From contig CAYVGZ010000002.1 of assembly GCA_964450845.1 (NCBI GenBank), positions 1 to 59,941 on the forward strand: a stretch of DNA of 59,941 bases. Reading direction: 5' to 3'. Positions 25,067 to 51,676 of this stretch are shown here, in pieces; positions within the stretch are counted from its first letter, which is position 1; each line of letters opens with the position of its first letter. The translations under genes and the position numbers were made by a program. Below the pieces are notes generated by a model. That model searched no databases. It saw nothing but the letters and a program-made list of their open reading frames with translations, and had not been told where the DNA came from. The DNA is from an uncultured Candidatus Bathyarchaeia archaeon. Lineage in GTDB: Archaea; Thermoproteota; Bathyarchaeia; Bathyarchaeales; Bathycorpusculaceae.

Positions 25067-28000
25067 ATGTTGAACTTGTTCAAGAAATGTTTTCAACGTA
25101 GACTGTTAAGCCTAATTTTGATTGGCATTATTGTTGAAGGTATTGTAGGTTTTGTATACATTCCTCATGTGTCTGGACAGCTTTCAATAACGTTAAAATG
25201 GAGAGAAAATGCTGGTACCGGTAGTACGTGGATTGGTCCGTTGGCAGCTGATTTAAACAATGACGGTCTCATGGAAATAGTTATAACAGGAAAAAGTGGA
25301 GGAGAAGGAAGAATTGCAGCGGTAGATCCAATAAGTGGAAACGTAATATGGTCACAGCCGTACGGAGGCGATCATGTTCCTTGCGAGATCATAGACTTAA
25401 ACAAAGATGACATTCCAGAAATCTTGATGGCTCCCCAGTACATTAATGGATCTTCTGGGGGAGTATTAGCCTTGCACGGAAACAATGGTTCTGTTTATTG
25501 GTACAATCCAAACGCTGGTGGAAAAGGAACGTACATAGCTGTCGCTGACATTAACGCTGACGGATATCCTGAGATCTATGCTGCTCGAGGAGGGAAGATT
25601 ACAGCCCAAACTTATGATGGCAACATATTCGCCTCCATTTGGACTTACTATCCATGTTGGGGCGGAATGACCATAGGGGACACAGACTTTGACGGTGTGT
25701 TTGAAGTTTATTTGGCCGAAAGAAGCGAATCGTATCCCTCGTATCCCTCGGGTGGAAGGGGGCTTAGGGCATTTTGGGCAGATAACCTAACTGAAATATG
25801 GGCTCACCCCGACATCCTTTGTAGTAGTCAAGCCCCGGTTCTTGCTGATGTGGATAAGGACGGAGATCTTGAAATAATCGTGATGCAACAAAGCGGTGGC
25901 GGTTTTGGGGTTATTAATACTGACGGAAGCGTTAACACCTATAATGGAATATACCGCAAACAATTCCGGATTCCGGGTACGACTAGGGGGCACCAGGGGC
26001 TAACAGTAGCCGACGTAGACGATGATGGCAACCTTGAAGCCATACAATGTGGCGACGCAAATCACAACGCGTATCCTCCTGAAATATTTGATCTGGTAGA
26101 CTGGAAACTAGACGCTAAATTACCATTTCCATCTATAGATCCTCCGGCAGTTGCTGATATAGACGGAGACGGAAAACTGGAAATTATAGCAACTAACGCG
26201 CGAAACGTGACTATTTTCAAGTATAATCAAACCGCAGCAAATTATGACATAATATATACCATACCTCTAGCGCGCGCCCAATCATTTTCCATAGTTCAGG
26301 ACATCGACGGTGATGGCAATCTTGAATTAGTTTTCAATCAGTTTAACAGTTGGATTAGCGTCTATGATGTGGAAGCGCCTGCACCAACACCATTACCTCG
26401 GTCTGGATTCTACTTCTACAGCCAATACAGAACAAGAGAAGCAGTTTATGTGCCTTCACCGGAACAGCCGCCAAGAATCTCAGAAATCTTACCTAATGAC
26501 GGCGCAACAAGCGTTTCGGTCTCACTTTCAGAGTTAAGCTTCAAATTGACAGATTACCAAAGTGATCCGATGAACTACACTGTTACAACTAATCCAAACA
26601 TAGGATCAGCCAGCGACATAAACGTACCCAACGGAAAAATAACCATTCCAGTCAGCGTCTTAGCCCCCTCAACAACTTACACTTGGACTGCAACAGCAAC
26701 AGACGGGACACACACAACAACAAGAACCTTCACATTCTACACAGAAGGAAACGTGACCTTAACCATATCAACTGTTGGAAACGGCTCAGTCACTAAAAAC
26801 CCTGACTCTGTAGACAATGTCTACGCCTACGGCACACATGTCCAGTTAACCGCAGTTGCAGACAATATCGTCTACAAATTTTCACGTTGGGAGGGCGACT
26901 TAGCGTGGATGGGTAGCAACAACCCAGCCACAATACTAATGGACGGAAACAAAACCGTCATCGCCGTCTTCACCAAAATCGAATATAGATTAAGAACATA
27001 CGTTTCCCCAGAGGGGAGCGGAATAATAACTCTTAACAATACAGGACTATACGGTCCCCCCTACTATTACTACTACTACGGCGAAGCTGTTCAGTTAACA
27101 GCCGAACCAAACACCGGCTGGTCATTCTCCCACTGGGAGAACGATTTAACTGGCAGCCAAAACCCCGCCACAATAATAATGAACAGCAGCAAAAGAGTGA
27201 CGGCAGTGTTCACGCAAGACCACTACACATTAACAATAACTGTCATAGGAAATGGCAACGTAACAATCGAACCATACAAAACAACATACACCTACGGTGA
27301 AAACGTAACATTAACAGCCACAGCTGATCTCGACTGGACATTTGCAGGTTGGAGCGGCGATGTCTCAAGCAACGAAAATCCGATAACTATTATGATGGAT
27401 AGCAACAAATCTATAATAGCGAACTTCACGTCGGCAAATTACCACACATTAACCATTTTCACAATCGGTAATGGCACAGTAAACAAAAACCCAGACTATG
27501 CGGTCTATGCTCACGATGAAAACGTAACATTAACAGCTATACCAGACGCAGGCTGGAAATTTGTTGAATGGAGCGGTGATCTTACAGGTAAAGACAGCGA
27601 AGCCATAATAACCATGAACAGCAGCAAAGTTGTGACAGCAACATTCACTCCGCTGCAGTACACTCTGTTTTTAAGTGTAAATGGAAACGGCCAAATAATC
27701 AAGACCCCAGATCAAGGAACATACGCGTATGGCACAGTTGTCACTTTAGAAGCCGTTCCTTATCTAGGTTGGACCTTTACTGGTTGGGGCGGAGACCTAA
27801 ATGGAACCACTAATCCAACCACGATTGTTATTACTGACAACAAAACTGTTTCTGCAACCTTCGCTCAGCAGGAATACACGTTATCCATTCATGTTGACCC
27901 ACCGGAGGGCGGCTCAGTAAATATCAATCCAGTAGGAACATACGACTACGGCGACACAGTTCAGCTTGAAGCTGTACCCACAAGTGGCTGGTACTTTGCA

Positions 28001-29668
28001 GGTTGGAGCGGAGACCTCTCAGGTTCAGCTAATCCAACAAATATAACAATTAATGGCGACAAGAATGTTACTGCCTCGTTTATTAAAATCGGCTACACCT
28101 TAACCATAAACGTGGTCGGTAGTGGCTCAATAACCATATCGCCAGCGCAACCAACCTACGACCCAGGCACAGAAGTTACATTAACGGCTAATCCTGCCCT
28201 TGGCTGGAGCTTCGCTGGTTGGAGTGATGACTTATCAGGCAGCACTAGCCCGGCTACATTAATAATGGACAGCAACAAAACCGTAACCGCCACATTCATA
28301 CAAGACCAATACACTTTAACAGTAAATGTGAGCCCTGAGGGCGCTGGCTCAGTAACTAAAACACCTAATCAAACAACATACACGTACGGCACAGTAGTCC
28401 AGCTGACGGCAACTCCAGAACCAGGCTACGTGTTTTCTTATTGGACAGGCGATATTTCTGGAAAACAGAACCCCGAGTATATCACTGTGATAGGAAACCA
28501 GACCGTGACTGCGGTTTTCGTAGAGGCTCCACTAGACTGGTGGGACACAGCGTGGAAATACCGTAGAACAATAACAATAGATCACACAAAAGTAAGCGGA
28601 GAACTAACAGACTTCCCAGTGCTGATCGAAATAACTGATAGTAGCGTTGCTGAAAAAGCGCAGCCAGATGGCGACGACTTCGTTTTCACAGACGCAAACC
28701 ATGTGAAACTAGACCACCAAATAGAGCTTTACGACAATGCAACAGGACACCTAATCGCCTGGGTTAAAGTGCCCTACCTATCATCAACAACGGACACAGT
28801 CCTTTACATATACTATGGAAATTCAAACTGTGAAAACCAACAGAACCCAACAGGAGTATGGGACGAAAACTACAAACTCGTAATGCACTTAAACGAGGAA
28901 ACAGGCATACACTATGATTCCACAATAAACGGCAATAATGGCACCCCGTTCGGAAGTTTAGTCCAAGGCGCAACCGGATACATAGGAAGCTGCGTAGAAT
29001 TTAACGGCGGCTACATCCAGTTACCACGAATCTTCACAACCGAAACGCAATTCACTTTCAGCGCTTGGATTTATCCCAGATCCGGCGCACGCTACTTCAT
29101 TTCTCAATATCAGAGTCCTTATCAAGGCGCATTTCTGCAAGTCTATGCAAATAACAGGATTGAATTATATGTTAACAACATCATAGTTGCTAGATCAATA
29201 ACTATTAACAGATGGTACTATGTTGTAGCAACCTTTGATGGCACAAACGCCAGACTATATGTTGATGATGGTTCACCAAACTCTGCCTCCGCTTCATACC
29301 CCATTTGGATTTCCCAGAACATGTACATCGGCGACCGTTCTGACCATGTGCGCAAGTTCAACGGCTTCATCGACGAAGTCAGGGCATCAAACATCGCCCG
29401 CAGTGCCGCTTGGATACTCACTGAATACAATAACCAGCTTAACCCAGCAGAATTCTACACGATTGGACCAGAGGAAACAATTGAAGAACCCCTTGAAGAA
29501 AACTATATTCAAACAGCTGCTATGGAAAGTTACGGACCTGTGGCCATAAACCCTGATATCATCGCACATGCGTTACTTCTGTGTTTCGGAGCATTTTGCT
29601 GCAAAATAATTGACCAGGATGAGCACTTAAAGAAGCTCTTGCATATATTCTCAACTGCGAAAGATTAA
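25067..29668 (+). CDS. Large modular surface protein: FG-GAP/VCBS repeats, Ig-like domain, 8 InlB-B-like repeats, DUF2341, LamG
   Basis: ADLNNDG/ADINADG/ADVDKDG Ca-binding loops; eight YTLT...G.G.V...YG..V.LTA.P..GW.F..WSGDL repeats; WW...WKYRR.ITIDH DUF2341 start; FTFSAWIYP...WYYVVATFDG...GFIDEVR LamG; hydrophobic C-terminal segment. Confidence 0.85.
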   Translation: MLNLFKKCFQRRLLSLILIGIIVEGIVGFVYIPHVSGQLSITLKWRENAGTGSTWIGPLAADLNNDGLMEIVITGKSGGEGRIAAVDPISGNVIWSQPYGGDHVPCEIIDLNKDDIPEILMAPQYINGSSGGVLALHGNNGSVYWYNPNAGGKGTYIAVADINADGYPEIYAARGGKITAQTYDGNIFASIWTYYPCWGGMTIGDTDFDGVFEVYLAERSESYPSYPSGGRGLRAFWADNLTEIWAHPDILCSSQAPVLADVDKDGDLEIIVMQQSGGGFGVINTDGSVNTYNGIYRKQFRIPGTTRGHQGLTVADVDDDGNLEAIQCGDANHNAYPPEIFDLVDWKLDAKLPFPSIDPPAVADIDGDGKLEIIATNARNVTIFKYNQTAANYDIIYTIPLARAQSFSIVQDIDGDGNLELVFNQFNSWISVYDVEAPAPTPLPRSGFYFYSQYRTREAVYVPSPEQPPRISEILPNDGATSVSVSLSELSFKLTDYQSDPMNYTVTTNPNIGSASDINVPNGKITIPVSVLAPSTTYTWTATATDGTHTTTRTFTFYTEGNVTLTISTVGNGSVTKNPDSVDNVYAYGTHVQLTAVADNIVYKFSRWEGDLAWMGSNNPATILMDGNKTVIAVFTKIEYRLRTYVSPEGSGIITLNNTGLYGPPYYYYYYGEAVQLTAEPNTGWSFSHWENDLTGSQNPATIIMNSSKRVTAVFTQDHYTLTITVIGNGNVTIEPYKTTYTYGENVTLTATADLDWTFAGWSGDVSSNENPITIMMDSNKSIIANFTSANYHTLTIFTIGNGTVNKNPDYAVYAHDENVTLTAIPDAGWKFVEWSGDLTGKDSEAIITMNSSKVVTATFTPLQYTLFLSVNGNGQIIKTPDQGTYAYGTVVTLEAVPYLGWTFTGWGGDLNGTTNPTTIVITDNKTVSATFAQQEYTLSIHVDPPEGGSVNINPVGTYDYGDTVQLEAVPTSGWYFAGWSGDLSGSANPTNITINGDKNVTASFIKIGYTLTINVVGSGSITISPAQPTYDPGTEVTLTANPALGWSFAGWSDDLSGSTSPATLIMDSNKTVTATFIQDQYTLTVNVSPEGAGSVTKTPNQTTYTYGTVVQLTATPEPGYVFSYWTGDISGKQNPEYITVIGNQTVTAVFVEAPLDWWDTAWKYRRTITIDHTKVSGELTDFPVLIEITDSSVAEKAQPDGDDFVFTDANHVKLDHQIELYDNATGHLIAWVKVPYLSSTTDTVLYIYYGNSNCENQQNPTGVWDENYKLVMHLNEETGIHYDSTINGNNGTPFGSLVQGATGYIGSCVEFNGGYIQLPRIFTTETQFTFSAWIYPRSGARYFISQYQSPYQGAFLQVYANNRIELYVNNIIVARSITINRWYYVVATFDGTNARLYVDDGSPNSASASYPIWISQNMYIGDRSDHVRKFNGFIDEVRASNIARSAAWILTEYNNQLNPAEFYTIGPEETIEEPLEENYIQTAAMESYGPVAINPDIIAHALLLCFGAFCCKIIDQDEHLKKLLHIFSTAKD
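26746..28525 (+). repeat. Eight tandem ~72-78-aa divergent protein repeats within the large surface protein
   Basis: Counted in the translation; boundaries approximate. Confidence 0.8.
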
Positions 29669-33179: not shown

Positions 33180-33734
33180 ATGGTTAAAAATTTCTTGAAT
33201 TCTTTTATTAAAGTTCTGCATTCGCAGAAAAAAATAGTATTGCTGGTTATCGCTGTTGTAATTATCACTTTGCTCGTTAACACTTTGATTTCAATGTGGC
33301 TTAGTAGATTCCATAATTTGAGAGTCCCCAGCATCGGGACCATATGCGCCATTGACGTGAAAGTCTATGGCGGAGACATAATCCAAAATGGAAGCCAATC
33401 ATATATTGACTGGGGCACAGTTTATCCGGGAACATCCACAAACCGCTCTTTTACCATTCTAAGTAACAGCAGTATCGAAATAATTCCTAAGCTCGAACTT
33501 CTAAATGTGACTTTCCTTAACTCGGAAGGAGAGAATGTCACTGACCCATTGAATAATTATATGAGCCTCACGTGGAATTACAATAATACGCCTCTCAAGC
33601 CACTGCAAAAATCTAATGTTACTCTAACCTTGTCAATTTCTTCCAGCATTGATTTTTTTTACTTTCTAATAAACAATAACGTGACCAGTTTTAGTTTTGA
33701 TATACGCATTTATCCCTCTACTTCCAAAGAGTAA
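33180..33734 (+). CDS. Membrane-anchored/exported single Ig-like-domain protein (IDWG family), copy 1
   Basis: N-terminal TM, then VPSIGTI...IDWGTVYPG...LTWNY...VTLTLSI...SFSFDI; homologous to 39441-39902. Confidence 0.7.
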   Translation: MVKNFLNSFIKVLHSQKKIVLLVIAVVIITLLVNTLISMWLSRFHNLRVPSIGTICAIDVKVYGGDIIQNGSQSYIDWGTVYPGTSTNRSFTILSNSSIEIIPKLELLNVTFLNSEGENVTDPLNNYMSLTWNYNNTPLKPLQKSNVTLTLSISSSIDFFYFLINNNVTSFSFDIRIYPSTSKE

Positions 33735-34719: not shown

Positions 34720-35364
34720 ATAAAAAAACAAAAAACCGCAGTAATTCTAGCTATTTTTACATTCTTTTTGTCAATTATTAGCCTTCCGTACGCAACGGCT
34801 CAACCCAACATTAACCTTCCACCAGATGAAGTAACGATAGAAGTGGAATACCCAAGTGAAGAATGCTATTATGACGTGATCCTGAGTAATGTCCCAGAAG
34901 GATACCATGTTACAAATGGTATTTATCTTGGTTGGTGCGTGGACGAATACCACTATATCTCTGACGGAAAAATCTACAGCGCCACACTATACTCAAGCTA
35001 TGATCCAAGCAACCCTCATCCAGACGAGGACTGGGATAAAGTCAACTACATACTAAACCACAAAAAAGGCTCATGGAAAGATGTTCAAGCCGCAATATGG
35101 TACTTTGTAAACGGTGGAACATGGCCCCCAGACTCTGACGCTCAAGAAATGATCAACGAAGCCAATGTCACCGGAGAAGGTTTTGTTCCATTCCCCGGAG
35201 AAAAGATGGCAATAGTCGCATGGATCAACTCCAACACACAAGTTCCAATAATCGAGGTCTGCGTCCCACTACAAAACGTGGTTCCAGAATACCCCTTGGG
35301 ACCAATCCTAGGCATAGCAAGCTTCTTCGCAGCACTAGGAGTCTACAAGCGACAATACCACTAA
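34720..35364 (+). CDS. PEF-CTERM-like sorted surface protein with a putative thioester domain (TED)
   Basis: GWCVD, DVQAAIWYF (TQxA-like), C-terminal-strand NTQVPII; VVPEYP + TM + KR tail. The frame is open upstream of TTG 34768 to an ATA at 34720, giving a complete signal peptide. Confidence 0.75.
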   Translation: MKKQKTAVILAIFTFFLSIISLPYATAQPNINLPPDEVTIEVEYPSEECYYDVILSNVPEGYHVTNGIYLGWCVDEYHYISDGKIYSATLYSSYDPSNPHPDEDWDKVNYILNHKKGSWKDVQAAIWYFVNGGTWPPDSDAQEMINEANVTGEGFVPFPGEKMAIVAWINSNTQVPIIEVCVPLQNVVPEYPLGPILGIASFFAALGVYKRQYH

Positions 35365-35462: not shown

Positions 35463-36035
35463 ATGAAGCTAGTCTATGCGGAATTAACCATTCTATTGAT
35501 TGGAGTATTTTTAGGGGTGGCTGGAGTAGTGCACGCTCAATGGAGTGCGCTTGGTTCTGGCTACGCCGTGACAACAAACTGGCATGGAGACAATGTTCCT
35601 ATAGGCCAAAACGTTACCGTGTGGGCAGGAACAACAGATCCAGAAGTCGAAGAAGTGTTGTTCCGATGGAACAAACCAGGAGACGCAGGCGTGTGGTTGG
35701 AGATCACTGTTGATATCGTTGATATCGGTCCGTACACTACGCCCGAAATTCCCGCGGGGGTTCCAGAAGAAATCAGCGACTGGGCTGAAGACCACCAAGG
35801 CATAACCATTTATTATGCAACTGACACACAAAGCCCAGAAATTCTTGGTGATTGGGGTGTCCAAGCTTTATTTATAGGAGAAGGTGGTGTGACAAAAGCT
35901 AATCATAATGATGTAATCATGATTAGATCAAGTTCGTTTAACACCATACCCGACTTTCCATTAATCGGAACTGCGGGAGCATTAATATCGATGCTTTTAG
36001 GCTTGAGCTTGTTTTTACGCAAAAAGAAACAATGA
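35463..36035 (+). CDS. PEF-CTERM-like sorted surface protein
   Basis: Signal peptide ending VVHA; C-terminal TIPDFP + TM + RKKKQ. Confidence 0.8.
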   Translation: MKLVYAELTILLIGVFLGVAGVVHAQWSALGSGYAVTTNWHGDNVPIGQNVTVWAGTTDPEVEEVLFRWNKPGDAGVWLEITVDIVDIGPYTTPEIPAGVPEEISDWAEDHQGITIYYATDTQSPEILGDWGVQALFIGEGGVTKANHNDVIMIRSSSFNTIPDFPLIGTAGALISMLLGLSLFLRKKKQ

Positions 36036-36117: not shown

Positions 36118-38190
36118 TTGGATGTAAACATCGTGGAAAAGCTAAAGCAAGAATTGAAAGGTATACTAACAGAAGCAGAAGTCTATTGTCCGCATATCCT
36201 AGCAATTGCGTTGATACTTGTACTGATTTTTCTTGTTTATCGACGTGATTTGGAAGTTCTTACAAACGAAGCTTTGAATACAGAAGCCCTTACCCACATA
36301 ATCTTAATACCCTTTTTTGTAGGCTTTCTAATTCACCAGAAGAAAGACCTGTTCAAAGCCTCACTCGTCCTCGGCAAACTTCAAAAACAGCAAAAAACGA
36401 GGCACATAGACGAACTTGTTGGATTAAGCCTATGCCTTATTGCCTTTCTACTTTACTGGTATGGGTCGTACACTTTTTATCCATTAGAGTATCATCTGCT
36501 TTCTCTTCCAATATTTGTTGCGGGCATTATGCTAATCCTATTTAACCTTAAAGCACTAAAAACAATAATGTTACCCGTTCTATTTCTCGCGTTCCTAATC
36601 CCACTTCCCACCGAGATCATGTATACGATAGGGGGAACTCTAGCAAACTTAAACACCCAAGCCTCGTACGCGTTACTTAAACCTCTAGGGCTTCCGGTAA
36701 CATTGTCCACATCCTACGGAGCCCCAACAATAATACTCACATCCTCCGCGGACCAACCCACATCCTTCACAATAGACCTTCCATGCTCAGGCATCTACAC
36801 GTTCATAGCCTTCACCATGTTCGCCACCTTCCTAGTTCTCATAATTTCAGCCCCAATCATCAAAAAAATTCTGATATTCATACTTGGATTCTCAATGTTC
36901 GAGATTTTAAACGTCATCCGCATAACAACAATTATTTCAGCCGCCTACCTTTTCGGGGAAGAAATCGCCATGCTTATTTTCCACACATCAGTCGGGTTGC
37001 TACTAACCTTTATCGGGATGCTGCTCACACTTTTTGCATCAGAAAAATTTCTAAAGATAAAATTCTTCTCCAAAACAAATGAAACACCCCCATGCCCAAA
37101 ATGCAAAACAGCACTAAAAGACTTCGAAAGCTTCTGTCTAAACTGTGGAAAATTCTTTAATCCATTGAAGAAAAAGCCCTCACCAAAGTTATGGGCAAAA
37201 CTAATCATTCTTTTAGCAGGTTGCTCCCTAATAGTCTTAAGTATCAACGCGCCCGTTTTCGCTATAGCCCAAGGAACAATTGAAGTTACATCTAATTGGG
37301 AGGATTCAACCAACATTCTCCCACCAATACCCAATTACGATTTAAAATTTCTATACAGAGACATAAACTACGAGCGAATAGCAAAGCAAGATGCCTCACT
37401 CACATATGCATATTCTCTAGCAAACTTCTCAGACCAAGGCGTTTACGTGCTAGTCGGTGTTGCAAAAAGCATTTCAAACCTTCACAACTGGGAAGTATGC
37501 CTAATATCATGGCAAACAGCCCAAGGACAACATCCGCTAGTTACAGTGCTAGACTCTAAGGACATGCAACTGATCGAAAGCGGTCCAATAATAGCTCGCT
37601 ACCTAGTCTTCATAAACCAACAAAACTACACGCAGATAACTCTTTACTGGTATGAAAGAGCAACTTTCAAAACTGGAATCACTGTGCAACAGAAATATGT
37701 CAGAGTAAGCTTAATAATCTTGACAAGAAACTCGACAAACTACCAACAATACGAAAGCCTTATACTGGATTTTGGAAAAGCCATAGCCTTTCACTTGGAA
37801 CCAATAAAAACCCAATCGCTAATTTCTCTAGGGGTTCCTGCGCAACAAGCACTGCTAATTCTCTCAATAGCCTCCATAATAGTAGCCAAAACAACACAGT
37901 ACACTAATGAATGGCGAAAAAGAACAAACAACCTTAAAATCTTCGATCATTTTGCCTCCCCAACAGACAAACTCACACTCCAAGCAATAACTGAATTAAA
38001 CAAAGAAAGAAAAACAGCAGCGGCAAGAGACATAAACCTAGCTATCAAACGAAAAGTTGGAAAGACCATGAGAATCGAAAAGCTAGGAGAGAAACTGAAC
38101 CGCTTACAAGAATATGGCTTCATAAAGACAGACATAGCTTCCTACAATAACAAGCCTATACTGGTCTGGAAAAGCTTAGTAAACATGTAG
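36118..38190 (+). CDS. Exosortase/archaeosortase family protein with Zn-ribbon, EpsI-like and wHTH-like extra domains
   Basis: Multi-TM N-half with DLPCSGI (Cys), NVIRI (Arg) and IFH (His) triad; CPKC...CLNC; extracellular HNWEVC...YWYE segment; basic C-terminal helix-wing domain. Confidence 0.85.
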   Translation: MDVNIVEKLKQELKGILTEAEVYCPHILAIALILVLIFLVYRRDLEVLTNEALNTEALTHIILIPFFVGFLIHQKKDLFKASLVLGKLQKQQKTRHIDELVGLSLCLIAFLLYWYGSYTFYPLEYHLLSLPIFVAGIMLILFNLKALKTIMLPVLFLAFLIPLPTEIMYTIGGTLANLNTQASYALLKPLGLPVTLSTSYGAPTIILTSSADQPTSFTIDLPCSGIYTFIAFTMFATFLVLIISAPIIKKILIFILGFSMFEILNVIRITTIISAAYLFGEEIAMLIFHTSVGLLLTFIGMLLTLFASEKFLKIKFFSKTNETPPCPKCKTALKDFESFCLNCGKFFNPLKKKPSPKLWAKLIILLAGCSLIVLSINAPVFAIAQGTIEVTSNWEDSTNILPPIPNYDLKFLYRDINYERIAKQDASLTYAYSLANFSDQGVYVLVGVAKSISNLHNWEVCLISWQTAQGQHPLVTVLDSKDMQLIESGPIIARYLVFINQQNYTQITLYWYERATFKTGITVQQKYVRVSLIILTRNSTNYQQYESLILDFGKAIAFHLEPIKTQSLISLGVPAQQALLILSIASIIVAKTTQYTNEWRKRTNNLKIFDHFASPTDKLTLQAITELNKERKTAAARDINLAIKRKVGKTMRIEKLGEKLNRLQEYGFIKTDIASYNNKPILVWKSLVNM

Positions 38191-38231: not shown

Positions 38232-39155
38232 ATGTGTCCAGAGAAAAAACAGCAACAAACTGCAAAAGAAACAGAGGACAAAACATCCGAACTAACCACT
38301 ACACAATATCTAATAGAAATAATAAAAAAGCTGCAGACAGACAATGAAAACCTAAAACTTGAACTCAAAAAAATAAAAGATATCCCATCAGGCAAAATAG
38401 GCTTCGCATTCATAATCCCAGGCGCATTAGCGCTAATCTTCTCCATACTCAACAACTCTAACGTTTTAGCCTTCATAGGTTTAGGCCTAACTTTTTGGGG
38501 CGTCCTCTTCTTTTTCGTAAGACCCGTAAGATACGTTCAAAGCAGCTTGCTAGACTCAACAGCCATCTCCACATACACTACAATCGACAAAATAGTTAAA
38601 GACCTAAAATTCAAAGGAAAAAGCTACTACATACCACCATACCCAAAAGAAGTCTACCTACCAGAATACCTGAAAGGACTCAAAGAAACCGTAGTATTCA
38701 TATCCGCCGACACAGTCGGCATACCATCAATAGAAGAACTCGCAAAAAGCAAATTCCTCCTCGAAAACCCCAACGGAATATGCGTAGCACCGCCAGGCTT
38801 AGGTTTGCTAACCCAATTCGAAAAAGAAATGAGAAGAGACATAACAAAGCTTCAACTAAACGAAATATGCGAAAGCCTTCCACCCCTAATTGTTAACAAC
38901 CTCCGACTTGCAAAAGACGTGGAAATAATAGCTAAAGACAACCAAGTTTACGTGAAATTGCTCGACTCAACATACAAAAGCCTATACACAGCAGAAGAAA
39001 ACCTGAAAAGCATACTTTCCCTAGGATGCCCCCTCTTAAGCGCCATAGCTTGCATAATCTCAAAGGCAACTGGAAAAATAGTCACAATAGAAAAAAACAA
39101 CATATCTCTAAATGGCCAAACAATCGAGTTTTGGTACAAATTCGTAGAAGGTTAA
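38232..39155 (+). CDS. Membrane protein: coiled coil, 2 TM, and a soluble domain with a V4R-like C-terminus
   Basis: Heptad N-terminus; two TMs; GCPLLSAIACIISKATGK.V.IEK. Confidence 0.65.
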   Translation: MCPEKKQQQTAKETEDKTSELTTTQYLIEIIKKLQTDNENLKLELKKIKDIPSGKIGFAFIIPGALALIFSILNNSNVLAFIGLGLTFWGVLFFFVRPVRYVQSSLLDSTAISTYTTIDKIVKDLKFKGKSYYIPPYPKEVYLPEYLKGLKETVVFISADTVGIPSIEELAKSKFLLENPNGICVAPPGLGLLTQFEKEMRRDITKLQLNEICESLPPLIVNNLRLAKDVEIIAKDNQVYVKLLDSTYKSLYTAEENLKSILSLGCPLLSAIACIISKATGKIVTIEKNNISLNGQTIEFWYKFVEG

Positions 39156-39158
39156 GAC

Positions 39159-39365
39159 ATGAGCTTTCCAATGTCAATGTCAGACATATGCCTATGGCTG
39201 GCTGTTATGGCTATAATTCTGCTAATAACCTCTGAGCTCATATCATCCGCAACTGAATACTCAAGAAACATCATAATCGAAAGAAACCGACTTCGACTAG
39301 TGGCATTAGCATTAGGAATAGGATTCATGGTCACAGTTGTCGTGCGCATATTCCAACCCTTCTAA
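39159..39365 (+). CDS. Small 2-TM membrane protein
   Basis: 68 aa, two hydrophobic helices around ELIS...Y; 3 nt after the previous stop. Confidence 0.7.
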   Translation: MSFPMSMSDICLWLAVMAIILLITSELISSATEYSRNIIIERNRLRLVALALGIGFMVTVVVRIFQPF

Positions 39366-39440: not shown

Positions 39441-39902
39441 TTATGGATATTCAGTTCCAATTATAACTATGCTAAATGAGAAATCAGTAATATCTGACTC
39501 TACAATAGTTGTCGAGACTGAAAGAGTCAAAACCGCCTTAAACGATTCGCCTACATCCAAAAATTGTCCCTCACGATCCCAACCAAGTGTTATGTAATCC
39601 CTGGCAAAAGAAGGACTCCAACTATCCACTGTCATATTAAGCTTTATTCCTGTTGTTCCAATGTTTTTCACCCAAACATCATAAGTATAGGTTTCTCCTG
39701 CCTCCAAAAGCCCCCAGTCAATAGATGTCAAGTTATTTGTGCAAGCCGCATCGCTGTATACGCCCACGCCAACAGCTTTCAAGCTTGCATGATTGTCGAC
39801 TCTATGGTAAGCTGTAAGTAAACCCGCGGCTACGACGCTTACCATAAGTACTGTCACAACTACGGCTATAACTACCATCATGTTGGTTCTTTGTGTTTCC
39901 AT
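39441..39902 (-). CDS. Exported single Ig-like-domain protein (IDWG family), copy 2
   Basis: TM then NHASLKAVGVGVY...SIDWGLLEAG...KNIG...LGWD...VLTLSV...DFSFSIVI. Confidence 0.7.
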   Translation of the reverse strand: METQRTNMMVVIAVVVTVLMVSVVAAGLLTAYHRVDNHASLKAVGVGVYSDAACTNNLTSIDWGLLEAGETYTYDVWVKNIGTTGIKLNMTVDSWSPSFARDYITLGWDREGQFLDVGESFKAVLTLSVSTTIVESDITDFSFSIVIIGTEYP

Positions 39903-40300
39903 CACGAACACCGAAGAAGAAGGATATCGTAAGTCTTAATAAATATTACTGTTCACATTAACAACGCAAATACACATACAACAATGTACCAACTATTTGA
40001 TACACGTCCTAAATCACAAAAACGCATTGGCTCGTTTTCAACCACATTCTTTGCGAGTTTCTGGAAAAAAGAAAATGGCACAATAAACTGGCACAGAAAG
40101 CATGGAATAAACAGAATATCTTCCGAAACACGGAAATCACTAAACAAACGCCTATGTTAATTGTACTCGTCAAAAGCCACTAACAAATTCTGGCCTCCTG
40201 AAACAATAACTTGCAAGTGTTGACAGCCATACTGCCAACAAACAACGCTTGGCGGTTGCTCAACACCTAAACGAGACTATAGACTTATTAGATTCACCCT

Positions 40301-51568: not shown

Positions 51569-51676
51569 TGGTGCCGGGGGCGGGATTCGAGCCCGCGACC
51601 TCTGGACAGTTGGGCGTTTGCCCCTTGTTCTCCAGATTATGAGTCTGGCGCCCAAACCAAGCTAGGCTACCCCGGC
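51569..51676 (-). tRNA. trnM: tRNA-Met(CAT), elongator-type, with a 30-nt intron at 45/46 and encoded CCA
   Basis: GCCGGGG/CCCCGGC acceptor; CCAGA-CT-CAT-AA-TCTGG anticodon arm; removing 51600-51629 restores AGGTC variable loop and T arm. Confidence 0.9.

Follow-up and report, generated by a model that had tools for sequence, protein, structure and literature searches.

The gene at positions 36118-38190 (+) of a 59,941-nt stretch of DNA from an uncultured Candidatus Bathyarchaeia archaeon (contig CAYVGZ010000002.1; the whole stretch is hereafter called the window) encodes an exosortase of a known type to which three extra parts are fused. These are a zinc knuckle, an EpsI domain on the outside of the membrane and a winged-helix tail on the inside. 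A preliminary description, made from the sequence, had proposed this architecture, and all the parts listed in it, i.e. the Cys/Arg/His triad, the CxxC pairs, two transmembrane (TM) helices, the ectodomain and the tail, are present in the single gene. By function and descent the sequence places the protein among the exosortase-EpsI enzymes, closest to the bacterial fused types. Taken jointly, our data point to an active bacterial-type exosortase with a divergent EpsI partner domain and a cytoplasmic zinc/winged-helix platform for docking or control, a reading to which we give a probability of about 60%.

The open reading frame (ORF) translates without a stop into 690 amino acids from a TTG start; its entry in the public database is 685 amino acids long, which implies a start at 36133. 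ORFs on the minus strand within the gene are short (e.g. 36945-37334) and were taken as chance occurrences, since the plus frame is strongly conserved. The architecture lies far beyond chance, because it is conserved over the full length down to 31% identity. In the predicted membrane topology, an ectodomain of 185 amino acids lies between two TM helices and is followed by a cytoplasmic tail of 98 amino acids. The coordinates of all features are collected in Table 1. The window itself is archaeal, as its close homologues are labelled Candidatus Bathyarchaeia, and its GC content is about 40%.

Exosortase core, EpsI-like ectodomain and zinc site

Residues 35-306 match the Pfam model PF09721 (Exosortase_EpsH) with an E-value of 9e-29 and 101 bits against a cut-off of 25.7, and the exosortase/archaeosortase signature TIGR04178 of NCBIfam with 49.6 bits against a cut-off of 23. 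Among 69 relatives taken from species-representative genomes, 66-67 retain Cys223, Arg268 and His289 (66 for Cys223), and the remaining sequences have gaps at these columns. The CSG, R and H columns also stay invariant when the protein is aligned to seven bacterial EpsH-EpsI fusions and to the second sortase of the same genome. Judged by its sequence, the core is an intact bacterial-type exosortase, and the enzyme family and triad given in the preliminary description are borne out by both superfamily models and by the columns shared with bacterial exosortases.

Comparison with the hidden Markov models of the exosortases and archaeosortases, which had been suggested as a check, placed the protein within the superfamily and below the cut-off of every named Xrt or Art subfamily. 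The scores, each given with its cut-off in bits, were 66.7/208 for XrtA, 62.6/425 for XrtW, 52.2/105.6 for 8TM_EpsH, 51/313 for XrtV, 47.9/400 for XrtD and 44.1/275 for XrtB. ArtC was the sole archaeosortase model to register, with 21.3 against 100, and the other Art and thaumarchaeosortase models of NCBIfam gave no match. The idea of a distinct sortase class therefore stands at the level of subfamily or architecture, where the sequence would make the protein a member of no named Xrt or Art subfamily, but not in its archaeosortase part. That label is misleading, because the core obtains its highest scores with models of bacterial exosortases and reaches only 21 bits against ArtC. In the databases, proteins of the family are labelled merely as 'exosortase/archaeosortase family protein'.

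The domain that contains HNWEVC and YWYE lies between two TM helices, whose centres fall near residues 371 and 580 both by hydropathy and in an AlphaFold2 (AF2) model of the C-terminal half. In this model it forms an alpha/beta domain with a predicted local distance difference test (pLDDT) score of about 90. When 70 archaeal ectodomains were aligned by hhalign with a bacterial set of 18 EpsI domains (free and fused ones) taken from genomes of Desulfobacterota, the two profiles matched over 143 columns with a probability of 81-87% and E-values of 4e-6 to 1e-5 (best: 87%, 4.1e-6). Controls, one reversed and 20 column-shuffled, scored at most 20 with a probability of at most 1.4%. PF11984 is matched directly by 8 of the 70 family members (best E 6.9e-5), and the nearest ESM-Atlas clusters of the ectodomain carry PF11984 at scores of 0.86-0.88, which we use as a lead only.

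Among the invariant residues of bacterial EpsI (H88, P90, C93, G98, W99 and W138), three align with the archaeal ectodomain: H88, C93 and W138 fall on H456, C461 and W511 with an identical His-x4-Cys spacing, while P90, G98 and W99 are not retained. Within the family W458, E459 and C461 occur in all 69 relatives, residue 456 is His in 68 of 69, and W511 is invariant in three alignments. Foldseek returned only weak matches for the ectodomain (3lyd, Apa 5zx9 and DcrB 6e8a; target-normalised TM-score 0.42-0.48), on which we did not build, and the list from a wide VIA search with the model of the C-terminal half was taken up by winged-helix matches. The profile alignment, the aligned His, Cys and Trp and the PF11984 matches of relatives argue that the ectodomain is a divergent EpsI domain (PF11984/DUF3485), as its description as EpsI-like had anticipated.

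Between the core and the first of these TM helices lie four cysteines (326, 329, 340 and 343) of the motif CPKC...CLNC, which are kept in 66-69 of the 69 relatives. The Pfam zinc-ribbon models PF13240, PF13248 and PF12773 gave weak matches below their cut-offs (E 0.009-0.4; best 16.3 bits against 25), and these were the only matches when residues 325-690 were scanned in pieces against Pfam and NCBIfam. The AF2 model of the segment has a middling pLDDT of 70-79 and shows a short helix and a beta bridge. In distant members of the family the first knuckle often reads C-x-H, giving a Cys3His set, and a few members are without the site. These swaps of ligands from Cys4 to Cys3His favour a real metal site. 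The built-in zinc ribbon of the preliminary description can be put more closely as a conserved Cys4 site with two knuckles, CPxC-x10-CxxC. The site is probably cytoplasmic, because its flanks are rich in lysine and the positive-inside rule places such flanks inside.

Winged-helix tail and the cysteines 223 and 461

Residues 593-690 were folded alone by AF2 from an alignment of 70 sequences, with a pLDDT of 92.9 and a predicted TM-score of 0.82. The model has a long juxtamembrane helix followed by the elements H1-S1-H2-H3-S2-S3, in which S2 and S3 form a beta hairpin. The top 50 Foldseek matches are almost all winged helices, among them PadR-like TA0346, Cdc6/Orc1, MecI, ArsR, Fur and TFE, with E-values of about 3e-3. 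The VIA search gave Z-scores of 9-10.8 and a root-mean-square deviation (rmsd) of 1.5-2.5 Å over 64-80 residues to Nur/Fur, SAMD1, Stn1, PadR, MecI, MarR and RPA32C. The sequences of the tails scatter weakly over winged-helix Pfam families and are members of none (Cdc6_C in 15 of 70, FUR in 6 of 70, also MCM WHD and HTH_12), and a search of the tail profile against the sequences of the PDB returned one designed repeat protein and noise. At the junction of H3 and S2 stands the motif L-x-x-L-E-x-x-G-(F/L)-I, which we take to resemble PadR and ArsR. Judged from the model and the structure comparison, the tail folds as a canonical winged helix, in agreement with its first reading as a winged helix-turn-helix.

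What the fold is used for is less directly read from the family. The near-invariant positions of the tail, I639, L660, G667, P680 and W684, are hydrophobic or Gly/Pro and are for that reason taken to form the fold; Lys685 in the wing, kept in 65 of 70 relatives, is the only conserved charged position. Across the 70 tails the net charge of the winged helix averages +3.4 and ranges from -5 to +11, with isoelectric points from 4.8 to 11.1, so the basic tail of the preliminary description does not hold throughout the family; the tail encoded in the window is itself basic. In the H3 region the mean net charge is zero (range -5 to +5), and an acidic residue is the most frequent one at 654, 658, 664 and 665. 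Since the charge is variable, the conserved positions appear fold-forming and protein-binding winged helices are numerous among the best structural matches, we lean against DNA binding and favour a role in docking or control. The coupling of sorting to gene regulation that the preliminary description had envisaged is not supported by this pattern, which shows no conserved basic surface.

The alternative that keeps this coupling makes the winged helix, perhaps together with the zinc site, a membrane-tethered DNA-binding regulator. It would relay the sorting load, or an outside signal sensed by EpsI, to transcription at the surface or polysaccharide locus, whether in tethered form or once released by proteolysis. 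The fold is that of DNA-binding families, with Fur/Nur at a Z-score of 10.8 and further matches to PadR, MarR and MecI (24% identity over 68 residues, rmsd 1.6 Å), and the six tails that match the Pfam FUR model do so with a best E-value of 8.8e-9, others matching TrmB and MarR weakly. The basic tail of the window protein and the conserved Lys685 also suit a regulator, and bacterial PEP-CTERM systems have the dedicated regulators PrsK and PrsR (PMC1569441). In addition, five degenerate paralogues (P0199, P0219, P0235, P0244 and P0262) have all lost C223, H289, H456 and C461, with R268 kept in one, and yet in all five the Trp markers of ectodomain and tail (W458, W511 and W684) persist, as would fit a sensor or regulator free of catalysis. 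From their sequences these paralogues may act as scaffolds or sensors and be pseudo-enzymes. The charge data speak against such a regulator: H3 is neutral on average and commonly acidic at the four positions named above, the charge and isoelectric point of the domain vary widely, and besides Lys685 no polar position is conserved in H3 or the wing. Equally good matches are found among the protein-binding winged helices RPA32C, Stn1, ESCRT-II and cullin WHB, and the domain is tethered by a short helix to an enzyme with ten TM helices. We consider a tethered regulator unlikely, and a docking or control platform remains our preferred reading of the tail.

We then compared the catalytic Cys223 with Cys461 of the EpsI domain in 68 full-length representatives of the wider family. 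Both are Cys in 50 and both are Ser in five (P0147, P0239, P0254, P0259 and P0267), which keep the Arg, the His and the EpsI His; the mixed states S/C and C/S occur once each, and neither residue is found at the two positions in about six. In a FastTree tree built without these two columns, there are at least six changes at position 223 and five at 461. This pattern suggests, but does not demonstrate, that loss of the EpsI Cys tends to accompany that of the catalytic Cys, and such a joint loss would agree with a shared active site or relay as well as with a disulfide.

On the side of a shared active site, the EpsI domain could be a second catalytic or acceptor module whose His-x4-Cys relays with the exosortase Cys, with the zinc site and winged helix signalling to the cytoplasm and coupling sorting to regulation. 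In this full form we find the proposal rather improbable. The disulfide version holds that Cys461 is a structural or redox partner of Cys223 or of another outside Cys, that the EpsI domain serves as a lid or chaperone for the cargo, and that the joint loss is the loss of the bond. The preponderance of C/C and S/S over only two mixed cases agrees with it, as does the predicted position of both cysteines on the outer side of the membrane, and paired cysteines typically disappear together. A bond to the catalytic nucleophile would, however, inactivate the enzyme unless it were regulatory. Moreover, His456 is conserved as well and stands five residues before Cys461 with the H88/C93 spacing of bacterial EpsI, which resembles a catalytic or ligand-binding dyad. 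Bathyarchaeia are anaerobes, in which outside disulfides are less expected. Overall, a disulfide seems to us quite improbable as the explanation.

Candidate cargo, neighbouring genes and distribution

Two ORFs directly upstream of the sortase gene encode proteins with a tripartite C-terminal signal and are likely, from these signals, to be its cargo (Table 1). In 26 of the 79 related loci the sortase has at least one ORF with such a signal beside it, usually immediately upstream and in the same orientation, and homologues of the second candidate occur in 26 related loci, upstream on the same strand in 20. The signal has the consensus N-V-(V/I)-P-(E/D)-(Y/L/F)-P, after which come a helix rich in Gly and Ala and then a basic cluster, and the genome as a whole holds five to six cargo candidates. 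None of the NCBIfam sorting-signal models reached its cut-off on eight cargo tails, save for the TM/basic part of LPXTG_anchor; PEF-CTERM (TIGR03024) scored 9.2 bits against 23 on the best of the tails and PEP-CTERM (TIGR02595) 12.8 against 16. LPXTG_anchor gave 17-18 bits against 15.9 on the TM and basic part of three tails (window 35928-36032; L036:3678-3782; L004:3823-3927), and the cargo proteins could be mis-annotated as LPXTG proteins.

Table 1. Features of the sortase gene and its neighbours, with positions in the window.
Feature	Residues	Position	Strand	Basis
Whole gene: exosortase core, Zn site, TM9, EpsI ectodomain, TM10 and winged-helix tail		36118..38190	+	
Exosortase core, multi-TM	35-306	36220..37035	+	PF09721, TIGR04178; same span in genome search; TM centres by hydropathy
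Catalytic Cys, CSG motif	223	36784..36786	+	Conservation in relatives; same column in bacterial exosortases
Arg of triad	268	36919..36921	+	Conservation; column shared with bacterial exosortases
His of triad	289	36982..36984	+	Conservation; column shared with bacterial exosortases
Cys4 metal site CPKC-x10-CLNC, predicted cytoplasmic	326-343	37093..37146	+	Cys conservation
TM9	about 358-384	37189..37269	+	Hydropathy peak at 371; helix 37-58 of the C-half model
Divergent EpsI domain, putative, extracellular	about 385-567	37270..37818	+	hhalign; PF11984 matches of relatives; Atlas; pLDDT about 90
EpsI signature H456-N-W458-E459-V-C461	456-461	37483..37500	+	Conservation; alignment to bacterial H88 and C93
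TM10	about 568-592	37819..37893	+	Hydropathy peak at 580; within long helix 224-293 of the C-half model
Basic juxtamembrane helix and predicted winged-helix domain, cytoplasmic	593-614 and 615-686	37894..38187	+	AF2, Foldseek, VIA
Candidate cargo 1, tail VPEYPLG, TM, KRQYH		34768..35364	+	C-terminal signal scan
Candidate cargo 2, N-terminal hydrophobic stretch (reads as signal peptide), tail IPDFPLIG, TM, RKKKQ		35463..36035	+	C-terminal signal scan
Downstream membrane protein, 307 aa, DUF7982-like, 41 nt past the sortase stop		38232..39155	+	In 56/79 loci, downstream on the same strand in 50
68-aa protein with two hydrophobic stretches		39159..39365	+	In 47/79 loci, downstream on the same strand in 43

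The two membrane proteins encoded downstream likely belong to the same system as the sortase; the longer one reaches an Atlas score of 0.93-0.94 to PF25939 clusters of Bathyarchaeota. The intergenic gaps of 82, 41 and 3 nt suggest that these genes form one operon. Upstream of the sortase lie genes for a Wzx-like flippase and a GT2 glycosyltransferase, and epsH genes are nearly always found among polysaccharide genes (Haft 2006, PMC1569441). The sortase block also lies between two similar small proteins, each with an N-terminal TM helix (33180-33734 (+) and 39441-39911 (-)), whose homologues, present in 31 of the 79 loci, mostly keep these relative positions. The glycan locus further encodes a surface protein of 1533 amino acids at 25067-29668 (+), which carries FG-GAP, InlB B-repeat, DUF2341 and LamG-like domains and was not flagged by the C-terminal signal scan. 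The genome encodes a second, compact sortase of 363 amino acids (contig C3:41456-42244 (-); locus L002:1393-2481 (-)), which is nearest to the thaumarchaeosortase and ArtC models, below their cut-offs, and is without zinc site, EpsI domain and winged helix. Elsewhere in the window, Rfam reports a tRNA match of 105 nt at 51572-51676 (-) that ARAGORN does not; it probably represents an archaeal tRNA with an intron.

The protein has matches in more than 500 clusters formed at 90% identity, of which the top 120 are all 633-705 amino acids long and cover 92-100% of the query. The 79 distinct loci come from species-representative genomes nearly all labelled Bathyarchaeia or Bathyarchaeota, with full-length matches down to 31% identity. 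A HMMER search with the C-terminal half against 1.84 billion representatives gave 267 hits, each a cluster at 50% identity. The C-terminal module was not seen outside the fused family in this search: every listed hit of at least 560 amino acids matches C-terminally, and the shorter ones resemble fragments. The distribution is patchy: of 201 genomes sampled from the class, 19 gave a match to the profile of the C-terminal half, and the figures are 18 of 121 for the high-quality genomes and 11 of 27 for the window's own family. We also considered the protein as the standard sortase of all Bathyarchaeia and rejected this, given the 19 of 201 genomes.

Short contigs with a sortase of the family occur in a metagenome-assembled genome labelled 'Baldrarchaeota' (L073) and in one labelled 'Desulfobacterales' (L078). 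Both contigs are probably mis-binned; PF11984 had no match in the 'Desulfobacterales' genome. A frame of 76 amino acids at G179:C44:2995-3228 matches the winged-helix tail only (E 4e-11) and has one internal TAG; it is either a gene remnant or a free-standing tail.

Relation to known systems and proposed mechanism

The protein resembles the bacterial exosortase-EpsI fusions XrtD (TIGR04152) and XrtW (NF038142), and XrtA with its adjacent EpsI (PMC1569441), in having a multi-TM core with CSG...R...H, one TM helix and an outside EpsI domain. The EpsI domains of the bacterial fusions and of the archaeal protein share His-x4-Cys and YWY motifs. Similarities also extend to the bacterial PEP-CTERM/EpsH system as a whole, in which the enzyme is likewise encoded in a polysaccharide locus and the cargo carries a Pro-Glu motif, a TM helix and a basic tail, although the archaeal signal is PExP or PE(F/Y/L) and not PEP. 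In contrast to the bacterial proteins, the present protein is archaeal, scores far under the XrtA, XrtW and XrtD cut-offs, and has a zinc site between the core and TM9 as well as TM10 and a winged helix after the EpsI domain. The 18 bacterial EpsI proteins examined end 0-16 residues past the domain and have no CxxC, trailing TM helix or tail, and the zinc site, TM10 and winged helix are for this reason regarded as additions of the archaeal family.

With the archaeosortases (ArtA to ArtE; ArtC with PEF-CTERM, TIGR03762/TIGR03024) the protein shares the TIGR04178 signature, an archaeal host and a cargo motif of Pro-Glu-aromatic type, similar to PEF-CTERM. The Art models are, however, short (274 positions for ArtC), none of them matches its C-terminal half, and the compact Art-like member of the superfamily in this genome is the second sortase. 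The winged helices of PadR, MecI/BlaI, Fur, MarR, Cdc6/Orc1, RPA32C and Stn1 have the same H1-S1-H2-H3-S2-S3 topology as the tail; unlike them, the archaeal tail is fused C-terminally to a polytopic membrane enzyme, belongs to no Pfam winged-helix family and lacks a conserved basic recognition surface. In the literature on archaeosortases and Bathyarchaeota, on exosortase and EpsI, and on exosortase or archaeosortase with winged helix, we found no description of the family or of its zinc/winged-helix architecture.

Under the proposed mechanism, the sortase would recognise, at the C-terminus of secreted proteins, the motif (V/I)P(E/D)(F/Y/L)P with a membrane helix and a basic cluster behind it, the first cargoes being the products of the two genes directly upstream. 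Cleavage at the motif would take place on the outer face of the membrane by the Cys/Arg/His transpeptidase within it, and the cargo would be handed to a putative acceptor, either a lipid or a glycan from the surrounding polysaccharide locus. His456 and Cys461 of the EpsI domain would most likely act with Cys223 and could provide a second nucleophile, an acceptor site or a partner cysteine. On the cytoplasmic face, the zinc site and the winged helix would most likely make up a platform for docking or control that takes no part in catalysis, and not a classical DNA-binding regulator; its partner might be, for example, the DUF7982 protein conserved downstream or the cargo's basic tail.

Several points weigh against this picture. 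We found no experiment on the family in the literature searched. The relation to EpsI rests on remote homology, and the window protein itself has no match to PF11984 or TIGR02914 (searched up to an E-value of 10 in Pfam and of 1 in NCBIfam). The tree offers four independent pairs, in which the EpsI Cys changes in the same direction in two to three and in the opposite direction in none; with a p-value of 0.25-0.5 the sign test is underpowered. The docking role is argued from an absent conserved basic surface, which is negative evidence, and several of the nearest structural matches of the tail are true DNA binders. Finally, the second sortase could share some of the cargo of PE(F/L) type in the genome.

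That the protein is no sortase at all, and instead a scaffold or pseudo-enzyme of polysaccharide export next to plain membrane anchors, could draw on the catalytically degenerate paralogues in the wider family and on the same lack of experiments, but it is very improbable, since all three triad residues are present in the window protein and in 66-67 of 69 relatives, and the motif before the anchor, needless for a plain anchor, is conserved across loci whose sortases share only about 35% identity.

Exosortases are widespread and biochemically little studied, and the role of EpsI is unknown (PMC1569441; PMC6098224). The family shows an EpsH-EpsI pairing with the His, Cys and Trp signature in Archaea, and since Archaea lack an outer membrane, EpsI cannot be an accessory specific to it. 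That Cys and His of the EpsI domain tend to vanish with the catalytic triad provides a concrete and testable idea of what EpsI does. A cytoplasmic zinc site and winged helix were found described for no sortase-like enzyme in the literature searched. Together with adjacent cargo and two conserved partners, these extra domains give a handle on how the surface is built in uncultured Bathyarchaeia.

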